In this document: positions 3 to 61,064 of the stretch, piece after piece | Position numbering within the stretch: position 1 is the first letter of the stretch | Layout of the letters: every line of letters starts with the position of its first letter | Virus record (IMG/VR): IMGVR_UViG_3300043464_001162 | Coordinates: 1-64,000 of that record | Strand: one strand, 5' to 3' | Origin: a virus | Taxonomy: Duplodnaviria > Caudoviricetes | Length of the DNA: 64,000 nucleotides | Translations under genes and position numbers: made by a program | Notes under the pieces: model-generated | The model's database searches: none | Told to the model about the DNA's origin: nothing | What the model saw: only the letters and a program-made list of their open reading frames with translations

Positions 3-443
3 AAAGAAATTGATTTTATTTTAAATTATGGTGTTAAGAAATGTATAGAATTATTTAAAAAAGATAAAAACGTTGAAGAAGTTGATTATTGTTTATATCC
101 ATGGATTTTTATTTCAAGAAATGAGAACACACAATCTCATTATCATAATCACACAATGTTTTCTCCACATGTAAAAAAATCAATAGAAAGCAATTATACA
201 TTCACATATTATGTACAAATGCCGAATAATTTAAATGGGAACGATGGTAAATTATTTTTTGTGGATAACGAAGATAATGTACAAAGGATGTTTTTACCAG
301 AAGAAAATGAACTCGTTATTTTCCCCGCAGATGTATATCATAGACCTGATACTTCTATTAATTCTACTATCGATAGAATTGTAATTGCAGGAAATGTATT
401 ATTTGATTTTCCAATTTTAAAAGAGAAAAAAACATTGATGTGA
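3..443 (+). CDS. 2OG-Fe(II) oxygenase-like protein, 5'-truncated by the window edge
   Basis: Frame is open from base 3, upstream of the ORF-track start at 156. HYHNH metal motif, GKLFF, distal YH and RIVIAGN pattern of DSBH oxygenases. Confidence 0.7.
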   Translation, partial: KEIDFILNYGVKKCIELFKKDKNVEEVDYCLYPWIFISRNENTQSHYHNHTMFSPHVKKSIESNYTFTYYVQMPNNLNGNDGKLFFVDNEDNVQRMFLPEENELVIFPADVYHRPDTSINSTIDRIVIAGNVLFDFPILKEKKTLM

Positions 444-1498
444 GTCAAAAGGAAGAAATACTAAAAAAATATCTATGTACAACTCCATTTGTTTATTTAG
501 AGGCACATAAAAATGGAGTTTATAGTTGTTGTCCCTCATGGTTACCTGATAGATTATGTAGTTTAGATGATATTGAAACCGCTTGGGAAAGTGAAACACT
601 AAAAAATATTCAAGAATCCATTATAGATGGTTCGTATAAATATTGTTCAAAAACGCAATGCCCATATTTATCAAATTTAATAAATAATAAACAAATACCC
701 CAAGGTTTTATTTCTAAAGAAAATTTTAAATACGAAAAATACAAAAAAGGGCCTACTAATATAAATTTTGCATTTGACAGAAGTTGTAATTTATCATGTC
801 CATCTTGTAGAAATGTTGCAATTATGGCAGATGGAAGTGAATTAGAATTTATTGATAATACAATAAATAAAATTGCCGATGTTTATGGTAAAAATATAAA
901 GATGTTATATCTTTCAGGGTCAGCTGACCCATTTGCTTCAAAATCAATTAGAAAATTGTTACTAAATTTTGATAATAAAAAATTCCCAAATGTAAAACAA
1001 ATTCATTTACATACCAATGGATTATTATTAAATGAAAAAATGTGGAATAGTTTAAGCCACATACACCATTTAATAAAAACAATAGAAATAAGTATAGATG
1101 CATCAACTCAAAAAACATATGAAATTATTAGAAGAGGTGGGGATTGGGGTGTTTTAATTGAAAACTTAAATTTTATTTCTAAATGTGAAACAATAAAAAA
1201 AGTTAGAGCTTCATTCGTTGTGCAAGATACAAATTACACAGAGATGGACTCATTTTATAAATTGATGAAAAATATACTTAAAGAAAAGGTTGAAATATAT
1301 TTTAATAAAATTACAAATTGGGGAACATATAGTGATGGTGAATTTTTAATAAAACAAATATGGTCAGAATCACATCCTGAATTTAAAGAATTTTTAAATG
1401 AAATAAATAAAGTTTGTTTTAATCAAATGTGTATTCATAATATGAATGATATAATTAAAAAACACAAATTAAGAAAAAACTTATCAAAACTTTTATGA
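440..1498 (+). CDS. Radical SAM protein with N-terminal SPASM/Twitch-like Cys cluster
   Basis: CNLSCPSC (CxxxCxxC), GSADPF, HTNG, ISIDA. N-terminal C..CC..C..C. GTG start overlaps the upstream stop. Confidence 0.85.
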   Translation: MSQKEEILKKYLCTTPFVYLEAHKNGVYSCCPSWLPDRLCSLDDIETAWESETLKNIQESIIDGSYKYCSKTQCPYLSNLINNKQIPQGFISKENFKYEKYKKGPTNINFAFDRSCNLSCPSCRNVAIMADGSELEFIDNTINKIADVYGKNIKMLYLSGSADPFASKSIRKLLLNFDNKKFPNVKQIHLHTNGLLLNEKMWNSLSHIHHLIKTIEISIDASTQKTYEIIRRGGDWGVLIENLNFISKCETIKKVRASFVVQDTNYTEMDSFYKLMKNILKEKVEIYFNKITNWGTYSDGEFLIKQIWSESHPEFKEFLNEINKVCFNQMCIHNMNDIIKKHKLRKNLSKLL

Positions 1499-1995
1499 TA
1501 TTAAAACAAAAAATATTATTTAATCAAGAAGAATGTCAATCAATTATTGATATATCAAAATCAAAAAAACAAAATTGGAACTATAAAGATAGAATGTATG
1601 AATCAATGAGTATAGAATATAATAAAAATACTATTTGGTTATTTGATAAGTTGAAGGAGTTTTTACAAAAGGAAACAAACATTCAAATCAGAACAATAAA
1701 CAAAAGGATACATTTTCATAAATTTACGAAAGGTGATTGGTTCGGAAAACATAACGATATTAGAGACGATAGGGTATATGCTGTTGGTGTTTTATTAAAT
1801 AATGATTTTAGTGGTGGTGATTTTAAATTATACAATCCAGATGAAATAATTTTAAATAAAGTAGTTGGAAACACCTATTTATTTGATGTAAGAATTGAAC
1901 ATGAAATAACATCTATTTTAGATGGGGAAAGATATTCATTACTTTGGTTTTTACAAAATGAACATATAAAATTAGAAACGAATAAATTAATATGA
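1495..1995 (+). CDS. 2OG-Fe(II) oxygenase, prolyl-4-hydroxylase-like
   Basis: HND ... LNNDFSGGDF ... EHE ... GERYSL (HxD..H..RxS). Confidence 0.85.
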   Translation: MILKQKILFNQEECQSIIDISKSKKQNWNYKDRMYESMSIEYNKNTIWLFDKLKEFLQKETNIQIRTINKRIHFHKFTKGDWFGKHNDIRDDRVYAVGVLLNNDFSGGDFKLYNPDEIILNKVVGNTYLFDVRIEHEITSILDGERYSLLWFLQNEHIKLETNKLI

Positions 1996-2501
1996 AAATT
2001 CTAATAATATGTTTACCTAGAACGGGGTCTACATCTTTAACAAATAAAATAGCCGATGATAATAATTTAAATCCTATATTTGAACCATTTGATGGTCAAA
2101 ATAGAGTTATTTATAATGGAGAAGATAATGTAGTTTTAAAAACAATTATAGACCAAACATACCCAATAGGCCAAAAAGATTATGTAAATTATTGGTTTAA
2201 TAAATCTAAAGAATTTGATAAAATTATTTTATTATCAAGAAAGGATTTAAAAGCATGTGCAGAGAGTTTATCGTTTTTGGATTATAATCACCGAAATGGA
2301 TTTCAATATAATGAAAAATATGAATGGCATTCAACTCCAAATTTTAATCAATGGTATAAATATGTAATTAGTAAAAATGAAGATTTACATATATTGGGTA
2401 AATTATTGAATATTGATATTATTTATTATGAAGATATATTCGATTTAAATTCAACAGAAAGATTAAGGGTAGGTAATTTAAAATTAAGTTCATTAATTTA
2501 A
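1992..2501 (+). CDS. Sulfotransferase-like protein
   Basis: N-terminal LPRTGSTSL (5'-PAPS-binding loop), FEPF, ILLSRKD and YYEDI motifs. Confidence 0.7.
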   Translation: MKILIICLPRTGSTSLTNKIADDNNLNPIFEPFDGQNRVIYNGEDNVVLKTIIDQTYPIGQKDYVNYWFNKSKEFDKIILLSRKDLKACAESLSFLDYNHRNGFQYNEKYEWHSTPNFNQWYKYVISKNEDLHILGKLLNIDIIYYEDIFDLNSTERLRVGNLKLSSLI

Positions 2502-2563: not shown

Positions 2564-3205
2564 ATGAAAACAGAACAAGAATTAAAAGTAAATTACGATA
2601 GATTTATCGGAATTATCAAAAAATATTTCAAAGGAGAAAGATTGGAGAAATTACTCCATATGTATTCCGAAGATGAATTGGGTGTTAACCTTACACTATC
2701 TGCCGCATCTGGCTCAAAACACTATCATAACGCATATATAGGTGGGTATATAGACCACATCTTTAATGTATGTAAGAACGCTCTTAAAATGAGAGACCTG
2801 TTCGTAATGCAAGGTGGAGAGATTGATTTCACCGAAGAAGAATTGATATTTAGTTGTCTACACCACGACTTAGGAAAGTTAGGTGTTAAAGGTGAATTAC
2901 ATTATTTACCAAATCAGGAAGAATGGTCTCAAAAGAAATACGGAACTTTGTTTGTTCGCAATGAGAATATTCCATATATGACATTAACTGATAGAACTTT
3001 CTTTACATTGAACCATTATGGTATTCAGTATAATGAGAAAGAGTATTTTGCAATCAAACTTACCGATGGTATGTATGATGAAGATAATCAAAAGTATTTA
3101 GCAGGTCACGACTTAAAGAAACAATTAGTTTATAAGTTACAATTTATTATGCATTGGGCAGACCATATGTCTACAATCATTGAAAGACAAGATAACATAC
3201 TTTAA
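2564..3205 (+). CDS. HD-domain phosphohydrolase
   Basis: H...GGYIDH...HHDLGK...HWAD metal-binding pattern. Confidence 0.75.
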   Translation: MKTEQELKVNYDRFIGIIKKYFKGERLEKLLHMYSEDELGVNLTLSAASGSKHYHNAYIGGYIDHIFNVCKNALKMRDLFVMQGGEIDFTEEELIFSCLHHDLGKLGVKGELHYLPNQEEWSQKKYGTLFVRNENIPYMTLTDRTFFTLNHYGIQYNEKEYFAIKLTDGMYDEDNQKYLAGHDLKKQLVYKLQFIMHWADHMSTIIERQDNIL

Positions 3206-3915: not shown

Positions 3916-5049
3916 ATGAATTGGCTTAAATATTTAGTCGGATTTTCTGCACTAATTATTGCCGGATGTGCAGCTTATTTCTCCGTAACAGGTTTGGGTG
4001 TTCTATTTAGTGGTGCGGCAGTATCGGTTATGGTAATGGCAGGTGCATTGGAGTTTGCAAAGTTAGTTGCTGCAACTTATCTAAAACAAGAGTGGGAAAA
4101 CATAAAAGGATTTAATAAGTGGTATTTGACCTCTGCCGTTGCATTATTGATGTTAATCACTTCTGCAGGTATATTTGGATATCTTTCCAATGCATTCCAA
4201 TCTCAGTCCTTAAAATTGCAACAGGTAGATAGAGAAGTTTTAGTATATTCTACTAAAATTGACCAAAATACTGCACAAATTACTCAATTAAACACCCAAT
4301 TGGGTCAGTTATCGTCAACTCAAAACACAATTTTAGATAAAGGTAAGGTAAATTCTCGTCTTTTGCGTTCAATAGACCAAAAAGATAGACAAACTGCTCA
4401 AATTAACAAAAAAATCGAAATTTTACAAACGGAAAATGCTAAAAATAACGAAAAAATCAACGAAATTAAGACCTCAAACTTAGATTTGGAGAAAGAAGTG
4501 GGTGGTTTTAGGTTTATTGCCGAAGCATTTGGTATGGAACTAAAAAATGTAGTAAAATTCTTTATATTTTTGATTGTAATTGTGTTTGACCCACTGGCAG
4601 TTGCTTTAATTATCGCATTTAATGGTTTAATTGAAACTAAAAAACAAAAACAAAGAAGGCTTTTGGGTGAAATTATAGAAAATGACGAAAAATTAGGTTT
4701 ATATGATAATTTAGATGATTTAATGGAAGAAAACTATAAAGGTTACGAAGTTTACGGAGATAATATTGTTAACGAAATCGAAAAAAATGAGATTAACGAG
4801 AAAAAAGAAGATACAAATGTTGAATCTACTGATGTTGTGGTTGATGATACACCTACTTCTGAAAATGTAGAAGAAACCCTTCCAGATTTAAAATGGGAAG
4901 AATACATGCATCCAGAATTTCCTTGGAATAAAAGAAATTTATGGATAAATAACCCAAAGGCCGTTAATTATTGGTTATCAACTAAGGGTGGTAATGTTAG
5001 AGAGTTATCCAGATTGAGAAGTGAAAATGAAAATATTAAAACTTATTAA
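3916..5049 (+). CDS. Membrane protein with coiled-coil region
   Basis: Three N-terminal hydrophobic segments, a Q/N/K-rich heptad region, a further TM (FFIFLIVIVFDPLAVALIIA) and an acidic tail. Confidence 0.75.
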   Translation: MNWLKYLVGFSALIIAGCAAYFSVTGLGVLFSGAAVSVMVMAGALEFAKLVAATYLKQEWENIKGFNKWYLTSAVALLMLITSAGIFGYLSNAFQSQSLKLQQVDREVLVYSTKIDQNTAQITQLNTQLGQLSSTQNTILDKGKVNSRLLRSIDQKDRQTAQINKKIEILQTENAKNNEKINEIKTSNLDLEKEVGGFRFIAEAFGMELKNVVKFFIFLIVIVFDPLAVALIIAFNGLIETKKQKQRRLLGEIIENDEKLGLYDNLDDLMEENYKGYEVYGDNIVNEIEKNEINEKKEDTNVESTDVVVDDTPTSENVEETLPDLKWEEYMHPEFPWNKRNLWINNPKAVNYWLSTKGGNVRELSRLRSENENIKTY

Positions 5050-5102: not shown

Positions 5103-5510
5103 ATGAAAAAATATGCATTATTCATCGGAAGATGGCAAACATGGCACAAAGGACATGAGTGGTTAATCAATCAACAATTAGAAAACGGAAAAAATTGTTG
5201 GGTTGCAATTAGAGATGTACAAAAGGATGAAAATAATCCAAAATCAGCACAAGAAGTATTACAAGAATTACAAAATGAACCATTTTTTACTCAAAATTGG
5301 AATAAAATCTTATTATCAATAATTCCAGATATTGAATCGGTAAACTATGGTAGAGGAGTGGGATATGAGGTAATTTATCACGAACCACCAAAAGAAATCG
5401 AAAAAATTAGTGGAACTGCAATTAGACAAAAATACATTGACTCAAATGGTGATGTAATTGTTTATAATATTGAAAAAAATGATAGTAGAGAGGAAACGAC
5501 ACATAGCTAA
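5103..5510 (+). CDS. HIGH-superfamily (cytidylyltransferase-like) nucleotidyltransferase
   Basis: FIGRWQTWHKGH (HxGH) and ISGTAIR motifs. Confidence 0.8.
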   Translation: MKKYALFIGRWQTWHKGHEWLINQQLENGKNCWVAIRDVQKDENNPKSAQEVLQELQNEPFFTQNWNKILLSIIPDIESVNYGRGVGYEVIYHEPPKEIEKISGTAIRQKYIDSNGDVIVYNIEKNDSREETTHS

Positions 5511-5688
5511 AACTATTTCTTATCGTGTTATATCTACATTAGTCGGATTTGGTATAATGTGGTGGGTAAGTGGTGATATAAAAGTAGGTGCAGCATTTGG
5601 AATTGCAGAATTGGTGTATAAACCTATTCAATATTACCTACACGAAAGAATTTGGTATAAATTTATAAAATACGGACTTAAAAAATAA
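5479..5688 (+). CDS. DUF2061-like small membrane protein
   Basis: KRHIAKTISYR ... YYLHERIW pattern. ATG at 5479 is preferred over the ORF-track start. Confidence 0.7.
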   Translation: MIVERKRHIAKTISYRVISTLVGFGIMWWVSGDIKVGAAFGIAELVYKPIQYYLHERIWYKFIKYGLKK

Positions 5689-37325: not shown

Positions 37326-37335
37326 TAAATAAATT

Positions 37336-37918: not shown

Positions 37919-38893
37919 ATGATAGTTTTTATTACAACAGGTTACGGAAAAAATATTATTGGTGGTGCCGATTTGTGGTGCAATAATTTTATAGAAAATA
38001 TTTTACCATTAGTCAAAGAAGATTACAAAATCGTAATTGATGGTAGACCTTTAATTAAAGAATTTGGTGCAATCTACACTTACGAAAACGAAAAAGAAGT
38101 TGATAGGATATTAAAAGAATGTGATAAGATTATTTTCTTACACCATTCTTACAAACCAAATCCTGTTATTAAAAACTATTTACACAAAACTTATCTTACA
38201 TTTGTCCATGCTTTCATTCCTGATATGTTGGGATTAAATTCCGATTATGAAAATTTAATGACAAAAGTAGATTGGGAATGGCAAAAAGAAATATTAGATA
38301 ATTCCGATAACATAGTTTGGATAGGATATGAGAACGATACGATACACAACGAATATCCAAAAACAAAAACAATTACAAATTATTACGAATGGAAACATGG
38401 TAAACCATTTACAGGCATTGTAAGTGATAAAATTGGATATGCTGCAAGATGTGAGACCAGAAAGAATGCACATTATTTAGATTACATTCCATCAATTATA
38501 TTTTCAAACAAATATGATTATAAAAGAATGTTAGAAGGGTCAAATACAAATTCCGACTATCATAGGTTTATGGAGTTTGATTACACATTTCATAATAAAT
38601 TCTTTGAAGGAAACTTTCAAATATTTCATGGATGTTATACAAAAGAACCATTTGGTTATGCAATATTTGATGCAGTGGATAGTGGTAAGGTTCCAATTAT
38701 ACATACCGATTGGATGAAACATATTGATTACAAATATCGAGCAAATTCTAAAGGAGAATTTCATCAAAGATATTTAGAATTACAAGAAGATAGTTTTGAA
38801 AAAGTAAATTTAGAATTTTGTAAATTAAGAGACGGACTAACAAAGTATACAAATAAACAAAATTGGATTAAAGAAATAATAGAAATAATATGA
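37919..38893 (+). CDS. Glycosyltransferase, GT-B (GT4-like)
   Basis: N-terminal GGAD, RKN, and EPFGYAIFDAVDSGKVPI (variant of the ExFG...EA motif). Confidence 0.7.
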   Translation: MIVFITTGYGKNIIGGADLWCNNFIENILPLVKEDYKIVIDGRPLIKEFGAIYTYENEKEVDRILKECDKIIFLHHSYKPNPVIKNYLHKTYLTFVHAFIPDMLGLNSDYENLMTKVDWEWQKEILDNSDNIVWIGYENDTIHNEYPKTKTITNYYEWKHGKPFTGIVSDKIGYAARCETRKNAHYLDYIPSIIFSNKYDYKRMLEGSNTNSDYHRFMEFDYTFHNKFFEGNFQIFHGCYTKEPFGYAIFDAVDSGKVPIIHTDWMKHIDYKYRANSKGEFHQRYLELQEDSFEKVNLEFCKLRDGLTKYTNKQNWIKEIIEII

Positions 38894-40242
38894 AGTATCT
38901 AAACATATTGTGTAATAGTTTTGAATTGAATTGTTTATTTCCGGAAGCTGACTTAGTAAAATCGGAATATGTAAACAATTACTATAATACATTAACTATA
39001 AAATACGGAGATGATTTGATTGATATAAATCATTATTTAGATGATATATTTTTGAAAATATCAAATTCAAAAAATTTAATTGATATTGATTCATATTATT
39101 TAAATCCACCAAATGATTTGACTATAATATGTGATAGAAAATTGTGGTATGAATTATATTTTCCATTGTTAAAAAACAATAAATCAGATTTCTATAAATT
39201 AGAACAAATATATGTTGAAAGAAATGTAGAAGTATTTTTTAATTTTGCAATATTAGAAGCTGTAAACTATGAAGATGAAGAAGAATACTTTTTATATGAT
39301 TTTAAATTTAAACATATAAAAATATCAGATTATGAATTATTTAAAGATAAGAAAAATTTTTACTATGATTCTTTTTATTCATTGTTTCATTTATTAGCAG
39401 AAGGACAAATGATGCGAGTTTTATATCCAAATATGGCATACGCTTCTGCAGAATACCATATTGATTTTAAAACAATATTTTCAAAATTTAATATAAATAA
39501 TAAATTACATAGGTCAAAGGTATACTCACATACTTGTTTAAAACCAAGATACCATAGAATTAAATTTTTATTAGATGCAGATAAAAATAATGTTTTACAT
39601 ATTGGGGAAAACAATGTAAATGAAAGATTTATTGATGAATACAATGTTGCAACCAAAGAGGATAAAATATATACAGATGGTACACAAAAACATAATAATA
39701 ACCACAAAATATATTTTAATAAAGAATATTATCAAAAATTTTTAAAAATTATAGATAGAATAAATGTCACCAAAGATGACCATGATTTTTTATTTAATCA
39801 TTTACGAAATTATTTTTTAAATGAAGAGTATAATAATTCTTATATAGATGTGGTTGGTGAAACTCATGCAATATTTAATTTAAAGTATGGATTTTTTACT
39901 GAAAAGTCATTGAAGCCGATATTGGCCGAAAAGTTTTTTATGATATATGGTTCTAAAAAAGTATATGAAGAATATAAAAGAATTGGTATTGATTTATTTT
40001 TAGATGAATTTGAATTAAATGGAATTGAAGACAAAAATGAATTTGAACAAATAGATATGATAATAAAATCTTTAAAAAAATTAAACCAAAATAAATTAAA
40101 AAAATTATATATTGAAAAATATAAAATAATTAAACAAAACAAAGAAAAATTATTTAATCATTATTGTAAAATAATAAATGATGTAAATGGTTTACTTCTA
40201 AGAAATACAGTTTTAAAAAACAAAAAAAATAAATTAATATGA
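38890..40242 (+). CDS. Putative glycosyltransferase (GT10-like C-terminus), paralog 1
   Basis: YIDVVGET...FFTEKSLKPI motif shared with 52698 and 59643. Confidence 0.5.
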   Translation: MKYLNILCNSFELNCLFPEADLVKSEYVNNYYNTLTIKYGDDLIDINHYLDDIFLKISNSKNLIDIDSYYLNPPNDLTIICDRKLWYELYFPLLKNNKSDFYKLEQIYVERNVEVFFNFAILEAVNYEDEEEYFLYDFKFKHIKISDYELFKDKKNFYYDSFYSLFHLLAEGQMMRVLYPNMAYASAEYHIDFKTIFSKFNINNKLHRSKVYSHTCLKPRYHRIKFLLDADKNNVLHIGENNVNERFIDEYNVATKEDKIYTDGTQKHNNNHKIYFNKEYYQKFLKIIDRINVTKDDHDFLFNHLRNYFLNEEYNNSYIDVVGETHAIFNLKYGFFTEKSLKPILAEKFFMIYGSKKVYEEYKRIGIDLFLDEFELNGIEDKNEFEQIDMIIKSLKKLNQNKLKKLYIEKYKIIKQNKEKLFNHYCKIINDVNGLLLRNTVLKNKKNKLI

Positions 40243-41147
40243 TTTTAGTAAATGGGTGCTCTTTTTCAACACCATCTGACGTTGATGGTGCATGGGTTGC
40301 AGGGTTTTATAAAAATGGATTGAGTCCGTTTAAACATGGATTACCCATTGATAGTTTCCAATATAATGTTGTAAGAAATGTATCTGCAGGAGGTACTTCA
40401 AATATGGCCATAAGAAGAAAAACTTTTTGGTATTTAAATGATTCGTATAATGTTCAAAAACCAGATTATGCAATAATTCAATGGTCTACAATTGATAGGT
40501 GGGATTATCCAGTTTTCGTAACAGAAGATAAAGCAAAAAATTACCCTTTTATGGATATGTTTCCCGAAAGGATAAATAAGATAAATTATATGAACAATGG
40601 AACCGATGTATTTGGTTTTGCAAAAGATTTTTATGAAAAATATTATTCATTATATGGTGCTGTATTAGAAACTTTAGAAAACATATATCACACTCAAAAA
40701 TATTTAGAGGAAAGAAATATACCATATAAAATGATTACTATTGGTAATTTATTTGATATGGACACTAGTGTTGAAAAATTAAAAAATCTGCAAAAAAATC
40801 CAGATAAGTTGCAAATAGGCAATTATGCAAATTTAAAAACAAATAATGGTATTTTTGAAAAATTAGAAGCTTTGGATGGTTCTTGGCATGAATTGAACAT
40901 TTTGAATGCATTGATAGATAAGATAGATTTCACTAAATTTTTATTTACAGATGATGTGAATATCCGCGGATTTGGTGGTGGTATTATAGAATGGTTTTTA
41001 AATAAAAATGAAATGTTAACAGGTGGTCGCTGGCATCCAGACGGAGAACAACATATGAGATTTTTTGATGAATTTTTATGGCCTAAAATAAAAGATGAAA
41101 TAAATGCAATTACTAAACAAAACACTAATAAAAGATTACTTATCTAA
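40239..41147 (+). CDS. SGNH-fold protein (putative acyltransferase/esterase), paralog 1
   Basis: NGCSFS, GTSN..I.R, IIQWS..DR and C-terminal WHP motifs. Confidence 0.55.
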   Translation: MILVNGCSFSTPSDVDGAWVAGFYKNGLSPFKHGLPIDSFQYNVVRNVSAGGTSNMAIRRKTFWYLNDSYNVQKPDYAIIQWSTIDRWDYPVFVTEDKAKNYPFMDMFPERINKINYMNNGTDVFGFAKDFYEKYYSLYGAVLETLENIYHTQKYLEERNIPYKMITIGNLFDMDTSVEKLKNLQKNPDKLQIGNYANLKTNNGIFEKLEALDGSWHELNILNALIDKIDFTKFLFTDDVNIRGFGGGIIEWFLNKNEMLTGGRWHPDGEQHMRFFDEFLWPKIKDEINAITKQNTNKRLLI

Positions 41148-48878: not shown

Positions 48879-49424
48879 ATGAGTAATAAATGGGATGAGT
48901 TTCAAATTACTCCATCGAAAAAATTTGGTTATGAAGTACCAACATATACTCCATCAATTTATAGAGAATATAGAGGTGAAATATTTACAACCTTTCATTC
49001 GGAAGAACATCCTGTAATGACACAAATCCACTACGATAAAAGTGAGATTAGTATTCATGGTAGATTCTCAAAATCATACAAAGGTGTGTTAAGAGGATTA
49101 CATTGGGATAGTAAAACGTGGAAGTTAGTTCAAGCTGCAGTTGGTGACATTTATTTAGTCGTTTTAGATATGAGATTAAACTCACCAACATCAGGAGAGT
49201 GGGAAAGTTTTATTTTATCTGAAAGAAATAGAAATCAAGTATTAGTTCCACCAGGATTTGCAAATGGACACTACGCATTGACTGATTGTATGTTTCATTA
49301 TAACTTATTTTATAAAGATGGTTATGTGGATGCAGACGAGCAGGGTGTAGTCAAATGGAACGACCCGGAATATCAAATGGAATGGCCAACAAATAATCCA
49401 ATATTACAAAAAAGAGACAAATGA
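48879..49424 (+). CDS. rmlC: dTDP-4-dehydrorhamnose 3,5-epimerase family (cupin)
   Basis: RG.IF, SYKGVLRGLH, VVLDMR..SPT, VPPGFANG and WNDP motifs. ATG at 48879 is preferred. Confidence 0.85.
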   Translation: MSNKWDEFQITPSKKFGYEVPTYTPSIYREYRGEIFTTFHSEEHPVMTQIHYDKSEISIHGRFSKSYKGVLRGLHWDSKTWKLVQAAVGDIYLVVLDMRLNSPTSGEWESFILSERNRNQVLVPPGFANGHYALTDCMFHYNLFYKDGYVDADEQGVVKWNDPEYQMEWPTNNPILQKRDK

Positions 49425-52697: not shown

Positions 52698-54089
52698 ATG
52701 GAAAATATGCAGGGTTCTAAATTTAAGTTTATTTATACGGATTGGTTTATCCATCATGGAGAAAGAAAACCATTTGGCAATGCTATTCATCCAGTTATTA
52801 GAGAATTTATTCAGCATATTCATAAGAATAATCTTAATATAGATTATTATAAAATATTACAATATAGTGAAAACGAAAAGGGCATAAAATTTGACCATTC
52901 GGAGTTAATAAATTATATTGATAGAAATTTTCCAAAAAATATAATATCATTAAATCAAATACAAGAAGATGATTTTACATACATCTATCCTATTGAAGTA
53001 AAAGACACATTGGGTGCAATTAATAATCATAATGGATTTGAATTAAATGGTGAAAAATATAAATGGTATTTAAGAGATATAATACCAACTGAAATATTAG
53101 ATGGTTGTAGAAGTGGTAAAATAAAAATTTTAATAAGCATAATTCACGACCCATTATACGATGATTATAATATAAAACAATTCGAAACACAAATGAATCA
53201 ATTGGGAATAGATGGTTCTAATATTATAATTTTAGGTGGAAGTAATTTTCAAGAATATTATGAAAAACATCCGGAAAGTAAAATAAAAATATATAATGGC
53301 CATCTTTTTATAAAAGGATATGCGGATATGATGTTATCATTTCCAACCATTGGTAATTTGGGATATATTTGTGAATTAGTGGATGCATCCGATTTGGATG
53401 AAAATGAAATCAGACCATATAAATTTTTGTGTAATAACAAAACAATGACAAAGGAACACAGAGTATCCATGGCCTATTTTGCAATAAAATATGATTTATT
53501 GAATGAGGGCAAATTTTCCTTTATACAAAAAACAAACAAAGATGATTTAATATCACATATATCAAAAATAATTCAAAATCCAAAAGAAGAATATATACAA
53601 AAAATAGTTGATATATTACCATATGAATTAGATACACATCACCTTTCACCAAATGAAAAAACTAATTTTGGTGCAACCAATAATATGAAAGATTGGTATA
53701 CTGATACTTACATAAATTTAGTTACTGAAACTTTCTTTGGTAGAAATGTATTTTTATCTGAAAAAATATTTAAACCACTTTCAAACTTGCAACCATTTAT
53801 TGTTTTGGGAGATTATAGAACTATTCATGAATTAAAAAGATTAGGATTTAAATCATTTGAACCATTTATAGATGAAAGCTACGATTTAGAAATAGACCCA
53901 AAAGAAAGAATAAAAAAGATTGAAATTGAAATTGAAAAATTAAAAAACAAATCAATTGAAGAAATACACAATTGGTATTATTCTATAAAAGATATATTAT
54001 TATACAATCAAAAACATATGTATTCATTTAAAAACTATGAATGTTTTGAAGAGATATTTGAAAAAATAAAATTAGATTACGAAAAATAA
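52698..54089 (+). CDS. Putative glycosyltransferase (GT10-like C-terminus), paralog 2
   Basis: HR...YINLVTET...FLSEKIFKP...QPFI...GFKSFEPFIDESYD motifs. Confidence 0.55.
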   Translation: MENMQGSKFKFIYTDWFIHHGERKPFGNAIHPVIREFIQHIHKNNLNIDYYKILQYSENEKGIKFDHSELINYIDRNFPKNIISLNQIQEDDFTYIYPIEVKDTLGAINNHNGFELNGEKYKWYLRDIIPTEILDGCRSGKIKILISIIHDPLYDDYNIKQFETQMNQLGIDGSNIIILGGSNFQEYYEKHPESKIKIYNGHLFIKGYADMMLSFPTIGNLGYICELVDASDLDENEIRPYKFLCNNKTMTKEHRVSMAYFAIKYDLLNEGKFSFIQKTNKDDLISHISKIIQNPKEEYIQKIVDILPYELDTHHLSPNEKTNFGATNNMKDWYTDTYINLVTETFFGRNVFLSEKIFKPLSNLQPFIVLGDYRTIHELKRLGFKSFEPFIDESYDLEIDPKERIKKIEIEIEKLKNKSIEEIHNWYYSIKDILLYNQKHMYSFKNYECFEEIFEKIKLDYEK

Positions 54090-54093
54090 AACT

Positions 54094-55092
54094 ATGGAAC
54101 TCACAGGAAAAAAAATTATTGTAACCGGAGCAAACGGACTAGTTGGTCTACCGGCAGTTAAAAAATGTTTAGAAGAAGGTGCTGCAAAAGTATATGCGGT
54201 AGACTTAAGATTTAGTGAAAATTTAAACTTTCTAAAAGGTCAATACCAAGATAGATTAGAATTAGTTAAGACGGATTTAACATATCTTTCTCATTGTGAA
54301 AATTTATTTACAATGGATAAGATTGATATCGTATTACACATAGCCGGAGTAAAAGGCTCACCCGCTAGGTCATCAACACAACCTGCAGATTATTTATTCC
54401 CAATGTTAATGTTTAATACAAATATGATTAAAGCATCTTTTGATGCTAAAGTTGATTGGTTTGTTTATCTTTCATCGGTTGGAGTTTATAAGCCGGCAGA
54501 AGTAATGAACGAAGAAGATACTTGGTCACAAGAAGAAACTTGGGCATCAACTCCATCTCGTTTAGATTGGCATCCGGGTTGGACAAAAAGAATGGGAGAA
54601 CTTACTTTGGATTCTTTAAGAGTTCAGTATGGTTGGAAAAACTATACCGTTATTAGACCTTCAAACATTTATGGTATCAATGATAACTTTGCACAAGACG
54701 CAACAGTAATCAGTTCTAATATTTGGAAATTATTCAATGTAGAAGGTGATGATATGGTGTGTTGGGGCAATGGTTCATCTCGTAGAGATTTTGTATTTGG
54801 TGATGATGTTGCACAAGCTTCAATAGATGTAGTTAAAAAAGAAGTTAGTGATATTATTAATTTTGGATGTGCAGAGGCAGTGACAATTAAAGAGACAATT
54901 GAAACTATTGTTGAATGTTATACCGAAATTACTGGTAAAACTAAAAATATTGTTTGGGATGAGAGTAAAACAAATGGTGACCCAATTAGATGTTTGGGTG
55001 CAAAAAAACAAAAAGAATATGGTATTCTTCCAAAAACTACATTAAAGGAGGGTATTAAACAATCTATTAAAGAATATAAAAGTAGATTATAA
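54094..55092 (+). CDS. Extended SDR epimerase/reductase (GDP-fucose synthase-like) with atypical active site
   Basis: TGANGLVG, RPSNIYG..DNF and WGNGSSRRDFV; PGWTK replaces YxxxK. Confidence 0.85.
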   Translation: MELTGKKIIVTGANGLVGLPAVKKCLEEGAAKVYAVDLRFSENLNFLKGQYQDRLELVKTDLTYLSHCENLFTMDKIDIVLHIAGVKGSPARSSTQPADYLFPMLMFNTNMIKASFDAKVDWFVYLSSVGVYKPAEVMNEEDTWSQEETWASTPSRLDWHPGWTKRMGELTLDSLRVQYGWKNYTVIRPSNIYGINDNFAQDATVISSNIWKLFNVEGDDMVCWGNGSSRRDFVFGDDVAQASIDVVKKEVSDIINFGCAEAVTIKETIETIVECYTEITGKTKNIVWDESKTNGDPIRCLGAKKQKEYGILPKTTLKEGIKQSIKEYKSRL

Positions 55093-55811
55093 TGAAATTA
55101 TTTACAATAGGATGTTCATTTACAGAAGGACAAGAATTGGAAAACATGAGAACGGAATGTTATGCACACCAGCTAGCAGAAAAATTAAATTTAGAATATT
55201 TTAATTTTGGAGCATGTGGTGCATCAAATGATTATATTTTTAGGAAAGTTTTTGAATTAATTAATTCAAATACATTACAAAGTGATGACATTATTATAAT
55301 TCAATGGACTCATTACAATAGAAAAGAATTACCTGTAATGTTTAATGATAAAGAATGGTATCATTATCTTCCAAATTCATTTCACGCCTATCAAGATAAA
55401 ACCATACTTAGACAAGGCAAAAATTTAAATGTTCAAAATCAATATATGAACCATGATTTGCATAACGATAGAATAGAACTTGAATCCAAAAATAAAAAAG
55501 CATTGGATGAATATATTGTTTCTTTTTTACAAGAAGAATACCAAAAAAATACTACTATAAATTATATAAATGCACTATACACTTACTTAGAACACTTTGG
55601 TTATAATCATTTACATTTTTTTGGTTGGGATAGATGTATAATTAATTCCGTTTATGATAATGGCCACTGCTTTTTAAATAAATCATTCGGTGGTTATACG
55701 GATACATTGTTAAATAATCATCCAGATAAAGAATCTCACAATAGATGGGCCCACCTATTATTTGAAAAACTAAATGAAATATACAAAAATAATTTAAAAA
55801 ATTTAATTTAA
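55092..55811 (+). CDS. SGNH-fold protein, paralog 2
   Basis: IGCSFTEG, NFGACGASNDYIFR, IQWT..R.E and NHP motifs. Confidence 0.6.
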   Translation: MKLFTIGCSFTEGQELENMRTECYAHQLAEKLNLEYFNFGACGASNDYIFRKVFELINSNTLQSDDIIIIQWTHYNRKELPVMFNDKEWYHYLPNSFHAYQDKTILRQGKNLNVQNQYMNHDLHNDRIELESKNKKALDEYIVSFLQEEYQKNTTINYINALYTYLEHFGYNHLHFFGWDRCIINSVYDNGHCFLNKSFGGYTDTLLNNHPDKESHNRWAHLLFEKLNEIYKNNLKNLI

Positions 55812-56855: not shown

Positions 56856-57848
56856 ATGAAAAAAACAGACAAGGTTTTAGTTACAGGAGCAAGTGGATTT
56901 ATAGGTTCACACTTATTAAGGTTATTATATGAAAAAGGTTATAGAAACCTTCGTTCAACATCATTCAGTAGAGATTTGAGAAACGATTTCGAAGGAACAT
57001 CGGAAGTAGAACATATTAAAGGAGATTTACAAAATGCAGAGTTTTGTGAATTGATTAGTAAAGATGTTGATGTAGTATTCCATTGTGCAGCAAACACTTC
57101 AAACGCATTAGATACCAAATTCAATCCATTATTACACGTTACTCCGAATGTGGAGATGAATGTAAACTTAATGGAACAAAGTTGGAAAAACAAAGTTAGA
57201 AAGTTTTTATTCATATCATCTAACACAACTTACCCTGATATGGGAACTGAGTTTTGTACCGAAGATATCAACGTACACGCTACACCAATGTTGCCTGTTT
57301 ACAAAGCAGTTGGTGGTATGAAAAGATATGGTGAAATGTTATGTGATTTCTTTTCTAATCAGATTCACGAACCAATGCAATGTTTGATTGTTAGACCCTC
57401 AAACGCATTCGGCCCTAATGATAAATTTGATTTTGAAAAATGCCACGTTACTCCTGCAAATATCCGTAAGGTAGCAGATGGTTTAAATCCAATTCCAGTT
57501 TGGGGTGATGGTACGGAAGTAAGAGATTTGTTGCATGTTGAAGATATGGCAGATGGTTTCATCTTTGTAGCAGAAAATAACGATACATATGATATTTTCA
57601 ATGTATGTTATGGTGAAGGGTTTACAGTAAATGAAACACTTGCAACTATTAAAGAATTGGATAACAATACAAATCCAATTGAATATGTAAATAATAAAGC
57701 ACCAATGATTCCTATTAGATTGTTATCTTCTAAAAAGATTAATGATTTAGGATGGAAACCAAAGAGAAACTTAAAAGAAGCTTTAAAAGAAACTATTGAG
57801 TGGTATAAAGCAAATAAGCATTTATATAACCCAAATTCAAAGCCATAG
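56856..57848 (+). CDS. Extended SDR epimerase/reductase (GDP-fucose synthase-like) with atypical active site
   Basis: TGASGFIG, HCAA, RPSNAFGPNDKF and WGDGTEVRDLLHVED; VGGMK replaces YxxxK. ATG at 56856 is preferred. Confidence 0.88.
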   Translation: MKKTDKVLVTGASGFIGSHLLRLLYEKGYRNLRSTSFSRDLRNDFEGTSEVEHIKGDLQNAEFCELISKDVDVVFHCAANTSNALDTKFNPLLHVTPNVEMNVNLMEQSWKNKVRKFLFISSNTTYPDMGTEFCTEDINVHATPMLPVYKAVGGMKRYGEMLCDFFSNQIHEPMQCLIVRPSNAFGPNDKFDFEKCHVTPANIRKVADGLNPIPVWGDGTEVRDLLHVEDMADGFIFVAENNDTYDIFNVCYGEGFTVNETLATIKELDNNTNPIEYVNNKAPMIPIRLLSSKKINDLGWKPKRNLKEALKETIEWYKANKHLYNPNSKP

Positions 57849-58966
57849 TGGAGGATAACAAAGATATATTAAAAAAATATGTTTGTGAAATGCCATTTAT
57901 GTATAGTGATGTACAATGGTTATCACAATTTGTATGTTGCCCTTCTTGGGCCCCACAAACAATTAGAGTCCACGAAGATGGTAGAGAGAAATGGTCACCC
58001 ATAGATGAGAGTGATGATGTTATGAGAAATTGGACATCACCACAAGCACAAGATATTCGTAAATCGGTATTGGATGGTAGTTACAAATATTGCAATCATA
58101 CAGTATGTCCAAGACTAAATGAATTAATCAACACAGGTAGAAAACCATATCTTTTTAAAGAAATAGATGAATTTAGAGAAGTTTATAATATACATACGGA
58201 AGAAGATATTATAAATTATAAAACACCTCCTGAAGAAATACTTTTTGGATTTGACAGAAGTTGTAATTTAAAATGTCCATCTTGTAGAGTTAATTTAATA
58301 CCAAATGATGATTTAGAATCACTAGAACATAAAGCAAAACTACATTTATTAAAATCAATCGAAGATAATTTTGCAAGTGGGCTAAAACGAATAATGGTTA
58401 CTGGAAGTGGTGACCCATTTTATTCAAAAATATACAGAGATTACTTAATTAATTTTGATATAAAAAAATATCCTAAATTAGAACAACTGCAAATAATTAC
58501 AAATGGTAATTTGTTAGATGAAAAATTGTGGAATCAAATGAAAGCAACTCCTTACATTAAAACAATAGAAATTAGTATAGATGCAGCTACTAAAGATACT
58601 TATGAAAATAAAACAAGACTAAATGGTAATTGGGATAGATTGATAAATAACTTAAAATTTTTATCAACTCAAGGACATATAATAGAAGAATTTGTTTGTT
58701 CAATGGTTGTTAGTAAACAAAATTACAAAGAGATGTATGATTTTTACGAATTAATATCTAATATATTTAAAAATTCTAATTTTAAATGGGGAATATCTAT
58801 AAATTATAGACAGATAGTAGATTGGGGAACATATTCTGCAGAAGATTTAAAAGAATTGCAAATATTTAATGAAGACCACACTTTATTTAATGAATTTTTA
58901 CAAGAACTAAATAAAATACATAATAGAAAATATGTAAATCATAATTTTCACCACTTAATAAATTAA
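57848..58966 (+). CDS. Radical SAM protein, paralog of 440..1498
   Basis: CCPSW, FDRSCNLKCPSCR, GSGDPF, IKTIEISIDA and WGTYS all shared with 440..1498; GTG start. Confidence 0.88.
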   Translation: MEDNKDILKKYVCEMPFMYSDVQWLSQFVCCPSWAPQTIRVHEDGREKWSPIDESDDVMRNWTSPQAQDIRKSVLDGSYKYCNHTVCPRLNELINTGRKPYLFKEIDEFREVYNIHTEEDIINYKTPPEEILFGFDRSCNLKCPSCRVNLIPNDDLESLEHKAKLHLLKSIEDNFASGLKRIMVTGSGDPFYSKIYRDYLINFDIKKYPKLEQLQIITNGNLLDEKLWNQMKATPYIKTIEISIDAATKDTYENKTRLNGNWDRLINNLKFLSTQGHIIEEFVCSMVVSKQNYKEMYDFYELISNIFKNSNFKWGISINYRQIVDWGTYSAEDLKELQIFNEDHTLFNEFLQELNKIHNRKYVNHNFHHLIN

Positions 58967-58967: not shown

Positions 58968-59510
58968 ATGAGTACACCACAATTTTCACCATATAAGGAT
59001 GAATTAACAAAAGCAATGACATTCCTTGCAGAAAAGGAAGATACAATTTTTATAGGTCAACAAATAGTTTACGCGGGAAATCCAATGAGCACAACCTTAA
59101 CGGAAGTACCAAAGGAAAAAATGATTGAAGTTCCTGTTATGGAAGAAACACAAATGGGTATGAGTTTAGGACTTGCAATGACCGGTAAATCGGTTATTAC
59201 ATTTTATCCTCGTTGGGACTTTTTAGTATCAGCTGCAAACCAATTAATAAACCATGCTGACAAATTTGAACATATGACTGATAAAAAAGTTAATATTATC
59301 ATTAGAGTTGGAGTAGGAAGTAAAGACCCATTAGACCCAGGTATCCAACATAGAAACGATTATACACAAGAATTTAAATCTATATTGCAATTCACAAAAG
59401 TACATGAATTAAAATCTTATGAAGATATTTATAACATATACACAAATGCTTATAACGAAGGTGGTGTTCATATTATTGTTGAATGGCCTGAATTATATTA
59501 TAAAAATTAA
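58968..59510 (+). CDS. ThDP-dependent E1 beta/transketolase pyrimidine-binding domain (stand-alone)
   Basis: FIGQ, PVMEETQMGMSLGLAMTG, NQLIN and GIQH motifs; no C-terminal domain. Confidence 0.85.
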   Translation: MSTPQFSPYKDELTKAMTFLAEKEDTIFIGQQIVYAGNPMSTTLTEVPKEKMIEVPVMEETQMGMSLGLAMTGKSVITFYPRWDFLVSAANQLINHADKFEHMTDKKVNIIIRVGVGSKDPLDPGIQHRNDYTQEFKSILQFTKVHELKSYEDIYNIYTNAYNEGGVHIIVEWPELYYKN

Positions 59511-59513
59511 ATT

Positions 59514-59642
59514 ATGATAAAAAAATTACCTATTATTTCTTTTTTTGTAAAATGGTATGAAAATTACAAAATGAAAAAGAAATTAAAGAAAAAACTAGAA
59601 GAACTTAAAAAAAGAGACCCATTTATTTATAAAAGTTTTTAA
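59514..59642 (+). CDS. Small basic 42-aa protein (not in ORF track)
   Basis: MIKKLPIISFFVKWYENYKMKKKLKKKLEELKKRDPFIYKSF*; exactly fills the gap between genes. Confidence 0.6.
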   Translation: MIKKLPIISFFVKWYENYKMKKKLKKKLEELKKRDPFIYKSF

Positions 59643-61064
59643 ATGAATAGAATAGTACTTGGGTATGATGTTATGACATATAATGGTGAACAACCAAATT
59701 GTCAAAACCCAAAATTTTTGAGCACAATCCATACCGCATCTGATTTTTATTTTTCTGACTCTTTAGAGTTTTTCTCAAAAAGATGGAATAATGAATGGGC
59801 CCTATATAATAGTAATCTATATAATAATTTTGCCGAAAAAAAATCAATATATGAGATAAAGCAAGATGCGAAAAAAAATCTAAATTATAGTTGGTTTTAT
59901 ATCGTAGAACCCTTTTCAAATTTGGAAAATTTCTTTGGCAATGGTTCTTTCTATAAAGATTTTTCTTTAAATGGTATTTCAAAAGTTGCATTAGACGAAA
60001 TAATAAATGGAAATGGTAATTTACTTATAAACTATATAATAGATGGAGGAACTGCATTTAGAGTAGAAAATTTCCAAAAAATTATAAATTATACAAAAGA
60101 AAACAATATACCAGATAATAAAGTATATTTTGTTTTTGCAGATTTTAAGTTAAAAGAAAATTTAGAAAAATTAGGAGCAAATTATAATGTAATTGATTAT
60201 AGTTACAATATGATTGCAAAGTCTCAAGAATTTAATAATACAATCAATATACCAAATTATTCATATTGGGGAAAGGGTTCTTATGAACCACAATTTGGTA
60301 CGATAGAGAATTCATATTCATCAGTTGCAACTTCCGAAGAATTTTTGGAAAGTATTGGAAAGGATAAAAAAGATTTCCTATTATTAAATAGACATTGGAA
60401 ATTACATAGATTATTTTTATTAAGCCAATTACATAAATTGGGACTTGAAAAAAGCTTAGTTTCTTGGGATAACAAATTTGCATATCAATTGCAAAGAGAA
60501 GCTTTTTTACAATATGATAATAACGAAGAATTTTTAAAATTAATCACAGAAACTTCATCATTGTTGGATATTCATGATTTAACAAAAATAGCAGGATTTG
60601 GATTTGAAAATAAAGACATATATTTAAACACATATTTAAGTATAGTAACGGAATCTGTCTTTTTGCAAGAAGATATTAATTTCCCAAGTGGATATCTTTC
60701 TGAAAAAATATGGAAACCAATTGGCCATTGCCAACCATTCATTTTAGCAGGGCCATCAAAATCATTACAACATATTAAAGAGAGATTTGGTTATAAAACA
60801 TTTCATCCATACATTGATGAAAGTTATGATTTAGTTGAAGATGATATGGAAAGACTTTATTTAATTCAAATAGAAATAGATAAATTTTCAAATAAATCAA
60901 AAGAAGAAAAAGACCAATTTTTAAATGATGTAAAAGACATTTGTGTTTATAATCAAAATTTATTTTTACAATATGGTCGTAATAGTTGGAAGTCATCATC
61001 AGAAAATACTGAAATGGAAAAAATCATAAATTTTTTAATGGATGGTAAAAAGAGTTTAATTTAG
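59643..61064 (+). CDS. Putative glycosyltransferase (GT10-like C-terminus), paralog 3
   Basis: LNR..K.HR...YLSIVTES...LSEKIWKPI...QPFI...GYKTFHPYIDESYD motifs. Confidence 0.55.
   Translation: MNRIVLGYDVMTYNGEQPNCQNPKFLSTIHTASDFYFSDSLEFFSKRWNNEWALYNSNLYNNFAEKKSIYEIKQDAKKNLNYSWFYIVEPFSNLENFFGNGSFYKDFSLNGISKVALDEIINGNGNLLINYIIDGGTAFRVENFQKIINYTKENNIPDNKVYFVFADFKLKENLEKLGANYNVIDYSYNMIAKSQEFNNTINIPNYSYWGKGSYEPQFGTIENSYSSVATSEEFLESIGKDKKDFLLLNRHWKLHRLFLLSQLHKLGLEKSLVSWDNKFAYQLQREAFLQYDNNEEFLKLITETSSLLDIHDLTKIAGFGFENKDIYLNTYLSIVTESVFLQEDINFPSGYLSEKIWKPIGHCQPFILAGPSKSLQHIKERFGYKTFHPYIDESYDLVEDDMERLYLIQIEIDKFSNKSKEEKDQFLNDVKDICVYNQNLFLQYGRNSWKSSSENTEMEKIINFLMDGKKSLI

Follow-up and report, generated by a model that had tools for sequence, protein, structure and literature searches.

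A short C-terminal Leu-Ile tail is shared by unrelated phage tailoring enzymes encoded behind an undescribed head gene

We analyzed the first 64 kb (here, the window) of the IMG/VR virus contig IMGVR_UViG_3300043464_001162 (87,044 bases, 30% G+C; estimated by CheckV to be 48% complete), in which tailoring enzymes of unrelated folds share a short C-terminal tail. The tail is carried by particular enzyme families, is held by selection on the protein, is an addition to otherwise complete folds, and is linked to an untagged gene of about 500 codons, here called the head gene, right behind which the arrays of related phages start. As for its function, the tail would be a portable, protein-level recognition tag that plugs interchangeable tailoring enzymes into one pathway through a shared reader, a reading to which we give about even chances. 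Judged by its capsid protein, the contig is nearest, among cultured phages, to Microcystis phage Mel-JY01 (54% identity) and Flavobacterium phage immuto (52% identity), which suggests that the source is a distant T4-like myovirus of an AT-rich host.

Eight + strand genes of the window end in Leu followed by Ile, Leu, or Met (L[ILM], the strict tag). The first is a 2-oxoglutarate (2OG)-Fe(II) oxygenase whose 5′ end is lost at the contig end (positions 3..443; Pfam PF13640, E = 1.6e-6; tail ..KEKKTLM, codons TTG ATG TGA). It is followed by a radical S-adenosylmethionine (SAM) enzyme (440..1498; PF04055 and PF13353; ..NLSKLL, CTT TTA TGA), a second 2OG-Fe(II) oxygenase (1495..1995; PF13640, E = 2.3e-5; ..ETNKLI, TTA ATA TGA), and a 169-amino-acid (aa) protein with no Pfam match at E = 0.001 (1992..2501; ..KLSSLI, TTA ATT TAA). 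Farther along are a 450-aa protein with no Pfam match (38890..40242; ..KKNKLI, TTA ATA TGA), a 302-aa DUF6071/SGNH-like protein (40239..41147; ..NKRLLI, CTT ATC TAA), a 239-aa DUF6071 protein (55092..55811; PF19547, E = 6.3e-7; ..NLKNLI, TTA ATT TAA), and a 473-aa protein with no Pfam match (59643..61064; ..DGKKSLI, TTA ATT TAG). All eight ends had been named in an earlier note on this DNA, and each is present at the stop and with the codons given there. The note's view that the carriers differ in fold stands for the two 2OG oxygenases, the radical SAM enzyme, and the DUF6071 protein at 55092-55811, all recognized by Pfam, and as a lead for 40239-41147, which a protein atlas places in a DUF6071 cluster (0.97). 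Its sulfotransferase label for 1992-2501, which rests on a Pfam match to PF13469 at E = 0.2 over 20 residues (P-loop), was not confirmed, nor was its glycosyltransferase family 10 (GT10)-like label, the atlas score of 38890-40242 for GT10 clusters (0.79 to 0.80) lying below the tool's bar of 0.9. The pattern proposed there, K-x-L-[ILM], was too narrow and fits three of the eight ends, whereas a Lys within the last six residues followed by L-[ILM] fits all eight. Two further + strand genes are borderline and were not counted as tagged: a metal-dependent phosphohydrolase-like gene (2564..3205; PHROG matches; end ..RQDNIL), close relatives of which end in ..DNII or ..DNVI and distant ones in ..VGKF or ..TKPF, and a gene for a 324-aa protein (37919..38893; end ..EIIEII; relative, ..KIKKII), which matches the motif only in its wider, hydrophobic-hydrophobic form.

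L[ILM] ends occur in 8 of the 84 + strand genes of the contig, exactly the eight listed above. All belong to the 31 genes of the tailoring cluster, compared with none of the 53 other genes (Fisher's exact test, p = 1.8e-4). Internal dipeptide frequencies predict 1.05 such ends (binomial p = 1e-5). The ends of 2,000 spurious open reading frames (ORFs) in the same AT-rich DNA, 3.0% of which are L[ILM], predict 2.5 (p = 0.004), or 0.46 when a Lys is also required (p = 2.5e-8), a condition chosen post hoc. An excess also remained over column-shuffled C termini (mean, 4.2; P[≥8] = 0.022). The tagged genes cluster, with up to 4 among 10 consecutive ORFs. The evidence from the window by itself is moderate; the relatives make the case decisive.

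Two sets of related loci were compared. Set 1 comprised 19 IMG/VR loci retrieved via the radical SAM gene and one retrieved via 38890-40242 (355 unique ORFs), and set 2 comprised 80 loci retrieved via the head gene. Three related records are referred to below as G001 (the closest relative), G002 (a further related record), and G003 (a complete relative of 335,630 bases and 438 ORFs). Homologs were sought in a collection of 5.8 billion proteins and in 50,697 cultured phage records; the radical SAM, 2OG, and head families have 685 to 1,147 database homologs each. Tail positions are numbered back from the last residue (0), the one before it being −1.

In set 1, 99 of the 355 unique ORFs end in L[ILM]. 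The same end is found in 97 of 114 full-length best homologs of the radical SAM enzyme, all 114 of which end in two hydrophobic residues, and among the matches listed for the 2OG oxygenase 1495-1995, 120 of 120 end in L[IL]. Orthologs at 40 to 60% identity keep the end while the preceding residues vary (radical SAM, ..NKTLI, ..INNLI, ..INGLI, and ..HTSLI; 2OG, ..TNKLI and ..NKNKLI). Orthologs of 3..443 at 37 to 63% identity end in ..KKTLM, ..KKTFL, ..TSSLI, ..KQKSLI, or ..KETLL; homologs of 1992..2501 at 28 to 46% identity end in ..RENLI, ..EKKLI, or ..HAYLI, and those in G003 in ..TKKLI or ..RPKLI. At related locus L022, the orthologs of 38890..40242 (88% identity) and 40239..41147 (94% identity) carry tails identical to those in the window, and 7 of 10 relatives in the family of 55092..55811 are tagged (..KQNLI, ..KQSLI, and ..KKDLI). 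Since viral-contig searches returned no relative of 55092-55811 and a single, near-identical locus for 38890-40242, the tags at 38 to 61 kb have fewer relatives behind them than those at 0 to 2.5 kb. Weighted by family, a profile of 127 tails (32 families) gave Leu 0.66 and Ile 0.25 at −1 and Ile 0.65 and Leu 0.26 at 0, values that follow from how the tail set was selected. Position −3 is Lys (0.40) or Asn (0.23), position −2 is Lys, Ser, Asn, or Thr, and acidic residues are depleted from −4 to −2 (0.02 to 0.12). The actual motif is a Lys/Asn-rich, acid-poor stretch of about five residues that closes with [L/I]-[I/L]-COOH, its invariant part.

The tag occurs on at least 12 sequence-distinct families, several of them 2OG subfamilies, with at least five Pfam-recognized folds. 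As in known C-terminal client tags, the carriers are of unrelated folds: 2OG oxygenases, radical SAM enzymes, GDSL and DUF6071 hydrolases, glycosyltransferase family 2 (GT2) enzymes, Trp halogenase, and UDP-glucose dehydrogenase. The last two are tagged in some phages, as are an Asp/Arg hydroxylase and a SET-domain protein (..KKII). Across the 80 loci of set 2, two-hydrophobic ends are nearly constant in some families (2OG, 101/118; 229-aa family, 53/53; 93-aa family, 46/50; radical SAM, 32/32; 186-aa family, 32/32; 176-aa family, 21/22; a second 2OG family, 17/18; GT2, 6/6) and mixed in others (DUF6071, 25/36; GDSL, 20/27; 430-aa family, 15/24). They are never found in the head gene (0/58), carbamoyltransferase (0/25), adenosine 5′-phosphosulfate (APS) kinase (0/24), DUF2061 (0/23), Hsp20 (0/18), or the 128-aa family (0/29), and neighboring housekeeping or structural genes never bear the tag. 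In G003, 20 of 438 ORFs end in L[ILM], with up to 7 among 10 consecutive ORFs. The corresponding figures for immuto, in which the head gene was not found, are 4 of 228 ORFs (1.8%) and at most 1 in 10.

Several observations indicate that the tail was added to folds that are complete without it. In an AlphaFold2 model of 1495-1995 (mean predicted local distance difference test [pLDDT] score, 89.4), residues 160 to 166 are coil and residues 163 to 166 score below 50; the tail is thus modeled as disordered although it is invariant in the alignment. Behind the last conserved Trp of the fold, 2OG proteins of the related loci have a median of 14 residues when tagged and 2 when untagged. The tail is modeled as a disordered extension of about 12 residues. 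The G003 ortholog of 59643-61064 (53% identical) ends in ..DFLST, without a tail, which again marks the tail as an add-on. Among representatives of radical SAM clusters at 50% identity, taken 25 at a time by falling similarity, the strict tag was found in 8, 2, 0, 0, 1, and 0. Disorder, tailless paralogs and orthologs, and fading among distant radical SAM enzymes together show the tail to be a lineage-specific addition, not a feature of the enzyme families. Untagged paralogs lie within the window itself (36139-36621, ..CWPK; 37336-37911, ..YLEN; 52698-54089, ..LDYEK; 57848-58966, ..HHLIN). Paralogy as the cause of the shared ends was rejected given these genes and BLAST alignments of tagged window paralogs that stop before the tails; 40239..41147 and 55092..55811 are paralogs in the N-terminal 100 residues only, 59643..61064 matches 52698-54089 at 42% identity over 149 residues, and 52698-54089 is also the untagged paralog of 38890..40242. 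The radical SAM paralog at 57848-58966 ends in ..HNFHHLIN, and its database relatives end in ..NFHHLL, ..NFHHLLT, or ..NFHHLLK. In this subfamily Leu-Leu/Ile stands at the end or one to three residues before it, which may represent a decayed or a different tail.

The tail is held by selection on the protein and not on the DNA. Leu at −1 is encoded by TTA, TTG, CTT, CTA, or CTC, Ser at −2 by both of its codon boxes, and Thr at −2 by ACA, ACT, or ACG, and tagged genes use all three stop codons. When distinct tails were compared pairwise within families (6,511 pairs), 62.5% of the pairs had different codons at −1 and 68.1% at 0; the synonymous share of these differences is 47% at −1 and 30% at 0, compared with 4 to 10% at −7 to −3. 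Orthologs of 45 to 70% identity keep the tail despite synonymous codon drift. Overlap with the next start explains some cases only, as the earlier note had it: ATGA or GTGA is present at four of the eight stops in the window (443, 1498, 1995, and 40242). Translational coupling, or an artifact of overlap, was rejected as the cause on the strength of the other four and of 60 of 110 tagged genes that have no next-start overlap, together with 19 that have no ATG within 25 nucleotides.

Tagging is polar with respect to the head gene, which is itself untagged. Copies are present at L041:280-1770 in G003 and at L003:3885-5393 and L004:6196-7704 in the closest relatives. Downstream, in the 80 loci of set 2, strict tags were counted in 29/55 genes at rank +1, 40/55 at +2, 27/52 at +3, 30/51 at +4, 25/51 at +5, 20/54 at +6, 23/51 at +7, and 20/46 at +8. 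Upstream, the counts fall to 10/49 at −1, 6/49 at −2, and 3/50 at −3, and far from the gene they are 1/80 at rank −12 or beyond and 9/127 at +12 or beyond. The closest relative, whose proteins are about 90% identical, carries three tagged genes, then the head gene, then eight tagged genes; among the last eight are the orthologs of window genes 3-443, 440-1498, 1495-1995, and 1992-2501. The head gene was not found in the 87 kb of the contig; the contig starts inside an array, and the gene would lie just upstream of base 1. On one 211-kb viral contig (L084, L108), two copies lie about 38 kb apart. Just upstream of the head gene, relatives carry a conserved untagged trio of APS kinase (L014:4094-4531), a 128- to 135-aa protein, and a 70- to 76-aa DUF2061 membrane protein; the window counterparts of the latter two are 5103-5510 and 5458-5688.

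The head protein has no Pfam match and no homolog among the cultured phage records; the protein collection holds 770 homologs. In its AlphaFold2 model (pLDDT, 82.7), residues 280 to 460 adopt a Hint/intein-like fold (Foldseek to bacterial intein-like domain BIL2, E = 2e-7; VIA-align Z = 15.1 to the TvoVMA intein, 14.6 to hedgehog, and 14.1 to BIL2). Residues 1 to 278 are ATP-grasp-like, with Z = 8.8 over 200 residues to YgiC, 7.8 to 8.8 to glutathione and glutathionylspermidine synthetases, and 5 to 6 to RimK, LysX/ArgX, and tubulin tyrosine ligase (TTL)-like (TTLL) enzymes. The N-terminal motif DF.YD.DGNL.PIE.NT aligned with the E-x-N Mg/ATP motif in five of five PDB hits; each hit was an ATP-grasp carboxylase, but the E values were weak (0.8 to 1.5). 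A PDB sequence search with the whole head protein and with window 3916-5049 gave nothing significant. E22, N24, K169, K185, and R225 are invariant. The Hint domain keeps its terminal [IVL]EHN in 115 of 120 homologs. The residue after the Asn is mostly Phe, Tyr, or Leu rather than Cys, Ser, or Thr, and the N-terminal junction (consensus ..PKLLDTD..) shows no Cys or Ser, so the cleavage to be expected is C-terminal at most. Behind ..EHN follows a peptide of median length 36 residues, distinct in 114 of 115 cases, in an eight-Cys frame (C-P-x3-C-x3-C-x3-C-P-S-C-P-K-x3-C-x4-C-x-P-x-C). This combination of an ATP-grasp-like domain, a Hint/BIL domain of the self-cutting kind, and a hypervariable eight-Cys peptide is an undescribed architecture. 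No description of the tag or the head gene was found in the literature searched, although supplementary files, for example those of PMC2938197, could hold a mention.

Based on these features, we propose that the tag marks swappable enzymes (2OG oxygenases, radical SAM enzymes, GDSL/DUF6071 hydrolases, Trp halogenase, glycosyltransferases, and several uncharacterized families), that a single partner reads the free Leu-Ile end in trans, and that this reader would gather the enzymes of each phage at a common substrate or complex. The head protein is the first candidate for the reader, since free C termini of peptides are bound by ATP-grasp enzymes of its fold class. The likely substrates would be the eight-Cys peptide, collagen-like fiber proteins, or both. 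If one reader exists, a plug-and-play rule would apply, by which any enzyme that gains some 12 residues ending in Leu-Ile joins the pathway; such a rule would account for the free swapping of oxygenases, radical SAM enzymes, halogenases, and hydrolases in the arrays. It would also offer a way to the product and substrate of the tandem dioxygenase arrays that have long been a puzzle in phages, and the tail might find use as a minimal peptide tag for enzyme colocalization. The phages concerned are abundant in freshwater and marine settings. By analogy, the tag resembles known C-terminal client tags, here joined to an undescribed head gene. The earlier note had suggested a docking or sorting peptide, recruiting enzymes to a scaffold, an assembling virion, or a compartment, or else a degron. 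That view is supported in part: a tail that is terminal, modeled as disordered, selected as protein, present on many folds, and polar to the head gene fits a peptide read by a protein partner, but no link to a scaffold, virion, or compartment was found.

G003 encodes five proteins with collagen triple-helix repeats (675 to 1,631 aa; L038:6505-9186, L038:9201-14096, L038:14196-17798, L039:1699-5424, and L041:14170-16197), which are candidate substrates of hydroxylases and glycosyltransferases. One of them is a tail fiber with an S74 chaperone domain located directly behind the tagged array. In the window, a 1,516-aa tail fiber is followed by an untagged 2OG oxygenase (36139-36621), a 231-aa proline-rich protein, and another untagged 2OG oxygenase (37336-37911). 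The stretch at 36139-37911 looks like a prolyl-hydroxylase/substrate trio.

Several points weigh against a recognition tag read by the head protein. The final Ile is encoded by ATA in 72.6% of cases versus 42.1% internally (p = 7e-7), which indicates some DNA-level influence, in part because ATGA overlaps force this codon; next-start overlap is about twice as frequent in tagged genes, which lie in tighter operons. The two locus sets come partly from the same contigs, so the samples overlap and are not fully independent. Tags also occur far from the head gene, at 38 to 61 kb in the window and at about 20, 126, 259 to 274, and 334 kb in G003; this is consistent with a reader that acts in trans, yet it weakens the operon argument. 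The flavor of the tag (LI, LL, or II) is constant along the head-protein tree (46 loci), with no covariation, and nothing there points at the head protein. The ATP-grasp enzymes known to read protein C termini, RimK, TTL, and LysX, act on acidic tails and not on Leu-Ile. A complex prediction with the head protein, the window 2OG oxygenase, ATP, and Mg (score, 0.00 against a mark of 0.32; controls not folded) speaks neither for nor against this reader.

Of the alternatives, an unlikely one is a degron, by which a phage or host AAA+ protease would read the tail and limit the lifetime of tailoring enzymes during infection. Basic residues before a hydrophobic C terminus give a MuA-type ClpX signal its general look, and the tail shares this look as well as a free C terminus and predicted disorder. 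ClpP is encoded in two of five related records (G002, E = 2e-56; G003, E = 4e-58 to 3.5e-57; full length in G003 at L037:12530-13207). In one of the five, G003, a 670-aa ClpC-like protein that has a double AAA+ and a UVR motif but lacks an N-domain (L032:9705-11717, − strand) adjoins Hsp20 (L032:11814-12230). However, these Clp genes lie at 110 and 212 kb, at a distance from the arrays at 280 kb. A phage ClpX in G001 was rejected, the AAA+ match there being MoxR/CbbQ-like. The last residues of known ClpX and tail-specific signals are small (LAA), not Leu-Ile. There is no evident reason for a lytic phage to destabilize 10 to 25 of its own enzymes, and a degron leaves the alignment of tagged genes behind an ATP-grasp/Hint/peptide gene unexplained.

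Another alternative is that the tails are substrates of the head protein, its ATP-grasp domain activating the Leu-Ile carboxylate and joining it to an amine such as the N terminus of a Hint-released eight-Cys peptide. A ligase of the C-terminal ATP-grasp fold would indeed stand beside its substrates (head residues 1 to 278; tags at +1 to +8), and the tag is confined to the extreme end, as for a carboxylate substrate. The nearest folds (glutathione synthetase, glutathionylspermidine synthetase, YgiC, RimK, LysX, and TTLL) belong to enzymes that acyl-phosphorylate a carboxylate, several of them at a peptide or protein C terminus. The five invariant residues and the aligned E-x-N motif fit such an activity, and the terminal His-Asn, which the Hint domain keeps in 115 of 120 homologs, allows C-terminal cleavage that would free an amine. 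Known protein C-terminal substrates of ATP-grasp enzymes, however, are acidic; these tails offer no Glu acceptor, ending in Leu-Ile and being poor in acids from −4 to −2. At Z = 8.8 the resemblance to ATP-grasp folds is middling, the domain seems to be permuted or truncated, and the peptide of the head protein itself would be an equally good substrate, for example by cyclization. We consider ligation of the tails decidedly unlikely. A bolder version, to which we give a slim chance, makes the tag the handle of a phage protein-conjugation system in which Hint frees a knottin-like eight-Cys peptide and the ATP-grasp domain ligates the Leu-Ile carboxylate to this peptide or another amine. Each tailoring enzyme would thereby gain a covalent cystine-knot module and be fixed by it to a target, for example fiber or virion, in a C-terminus-directed counterpart of ubiquitin- or Pup-like tagging without E1-E3 enzymes.

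A localization signal that directs the enzymes to the capsid or virion (in the manner of encapsulin cargo), a membrane, or another compartment is very improbable. One C-terminal peptide common to many unrelated enzymes is what encapsulin cargo and peroxisomal targeting signal 1 (PTS1) proteins display, the tail is basic plus hydrophobic, and in G003 a small tagged ORF (126835-127140) lies right behind the major capsid gene; the arrays, however, do not adjoin capsid, scaffold, or portal genes, and the tail lacks the length of a membrane anchor and is too specific for one (Leu-Ile, not aromatic). Largely refuted, and given next to no credence here, is a DNA-level by-product of AT-rich gene ends, of the next gene's translation-initiation region, or of cassette-shuffling sequences: tail codons are AT-rich (AAA, AAT, TTA, and ATA), ATGA/TAATG overlap occurs in 50/110 tagged versus 82/350 untagged genes, and ATA is overused for the final Ile, but spurious ORF ends give just 3.0%, most tagged genes (60/110) have no start overlap, the codons are as variable as their neighbors yet synonymously so, untagged families within the same tight operons never gain a tail, and the AT-rich related phage immuto stands at 1.8%.

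A recognition tag on the enzymes, which we continue to favor, has partial precedents. Among ligases, RimK acts on ribosomal protein S6, LysX/ArgX on LysW, and TTL on tubulin, substrates that end in Glu. In these systems a ligase of the head fold class recognizes a free C-terminal protein tail; the likeness of the head domain to them is at the fold level only (Z = 5 to 9). ClpX recognizes -LAA in ssrA and -RRKKAI in MuA, and the latter, like the tail studied here, places basic residues before a hydrophobic C terminus on a phage protein. In contrast to ClpX signals, the Leu-Ile pair is invariant in the phage tag, and no Clp gene lies in or near the arrays. PTS1 is -SKL-COOH, read by Pex5 for peroxisomal import, and encapsulin cargo-loading peptides sort enzymes to a shell. 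Like these, the phage tail is a C-terminal peptide common to unrelated enzymes; unlike them, it has another consensus and showed no link to a compartment or shell, and the tagged genes lie behind a ligase/Hint/peptide gene and not a shell or import gene. Docking tails of nonribosomal peptide synthetases and polyketide synthases, and the leader peptides of ribosomally synthesized and posttranslationally modified peptides (RiPPs) with their RiPP recognition elements, are short terminal peptides that assemble the enzymes and substrates of one pathway. As in RiPP and assembly-line loci, a candidate peptide substrate, the eight-Cys tail, lies beside radical SAM, oxygenase, and halogenase genes. In RiPP systems, however, the substrate bears the recognition peptide and each enzyme has a reader, whereas here each enzyme bears the peptide, so a single reader would suffice.

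Two published systems come close in other respects. As outlined in part of its description, the targeting complex of cytosolic iron-sulfur assembly (CIA) recognizes a tripeptide, [LIM]-[DES]-[WF]-COO-, on eukaryotic cytosolic Fe-S clients (PMC10245660). From the same portion of that source, the CIA tripeptide, like the phage tag, is very short, sits at the extreme C terminus with a free carboxylate, and is found on many unrelated clients, the CIA signal being read by one receptor complex; it differs in being eukaryotic, in its acidic/aromatic end, and in serving cofactor delivery (PMC10245660), whereas the phage tag is basic plus Leu-Ile and its clients are tailoring enzymes, mostly not Fe-S proteins. 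Cyanophage arrays such as that of Syn9 combine several 2OG dioxygenases with Trp halogenases and are predicted, in the part of the account available, to modify a peptide or a collagen-like or tail protein (Iyer et al. 2010, PMC2938197). They share with the present arrays a phage-encoded run of distinct 2OG dioxygenases with Trp halogenases, but that part of the account mentions no common C-terminal tail (PMC2938197). In the dioxygenase array of cyanophage ACG-2014g, likewise, none of the 20 coding sequences examined, 7 of them 2OG-like, ends in L[ILM].

Two familiar C-terminal ligands were rejected as models for the tag. A sliding-clamp-binding tail (bacterial QL[SD]LF, or the tail of T4-type polymerases) does not fit, because the PolB of G003 ends in ..HDYAFHAIEI; Gln is also missing from the top seven residues at −3 and reaches 0.07 at −4, a position dominated by Lys, Asn, Thr, Ile, Gly, and Arg. 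A class I PDZ ligand is at odds with a family-weighted Ser-plus-Thr share of just 0.28 at −2 and with Leu or Ile at −1 in 0.91. No PDZ or TPR family was found in 318 scanned ORFs of G003, a scan that excluded 16 ORFs crossing fetch boundaries and 104 under 90 aa.

The remaining genes of the contig, nearly all on the + strand, include structural genes (gp25-type baseplate wedge, tail fiber, portal, prohead protease, major capsid protein, and terminase) and genes for primase, T7-type endonuclease I, Hsp20, peptide deformylase, and carbamoyltransferase. The stretch from 36 to 63 kb holds a large block of genes for sugar-nucleotide and tailoring enzymes. A 1,047-aa ORF at 28176-31319 joins a calcineurin-like phosphoesterase (Mre11/SbcD-like, residues 5 to 191) to an SMC/AAA_23 Rad50/SbcC-like part and looks like a fused gp47-gp46 nuclease. 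A thiamine pyrophosphate (TPP)-dependent enzyme is split between two genes 9 kb apart, 49421-50059 and 58968-59510, which match separate halves of phrog_34187, one the E1/TPP-binding part, the other the transketolase pyrimidine-binding part. At 43025-45738, a tandem paralog pair carries eukaryote-type glycosyltransferase family 7 (beta-1,4-galactosyltransferase-like) domains, with a Laminin_G_3 lectin-like domain fused to the second; this pair recurs in G003, adjoining several Laminin_G_3 proteins. Beyond the window, a 58-aa ORF at contig positions 72576-72752 matches the phage ribosomal protein S21 family (phrog_21469, E = 5e-6) and adjoins a starvation-inducible regulator-like gene.

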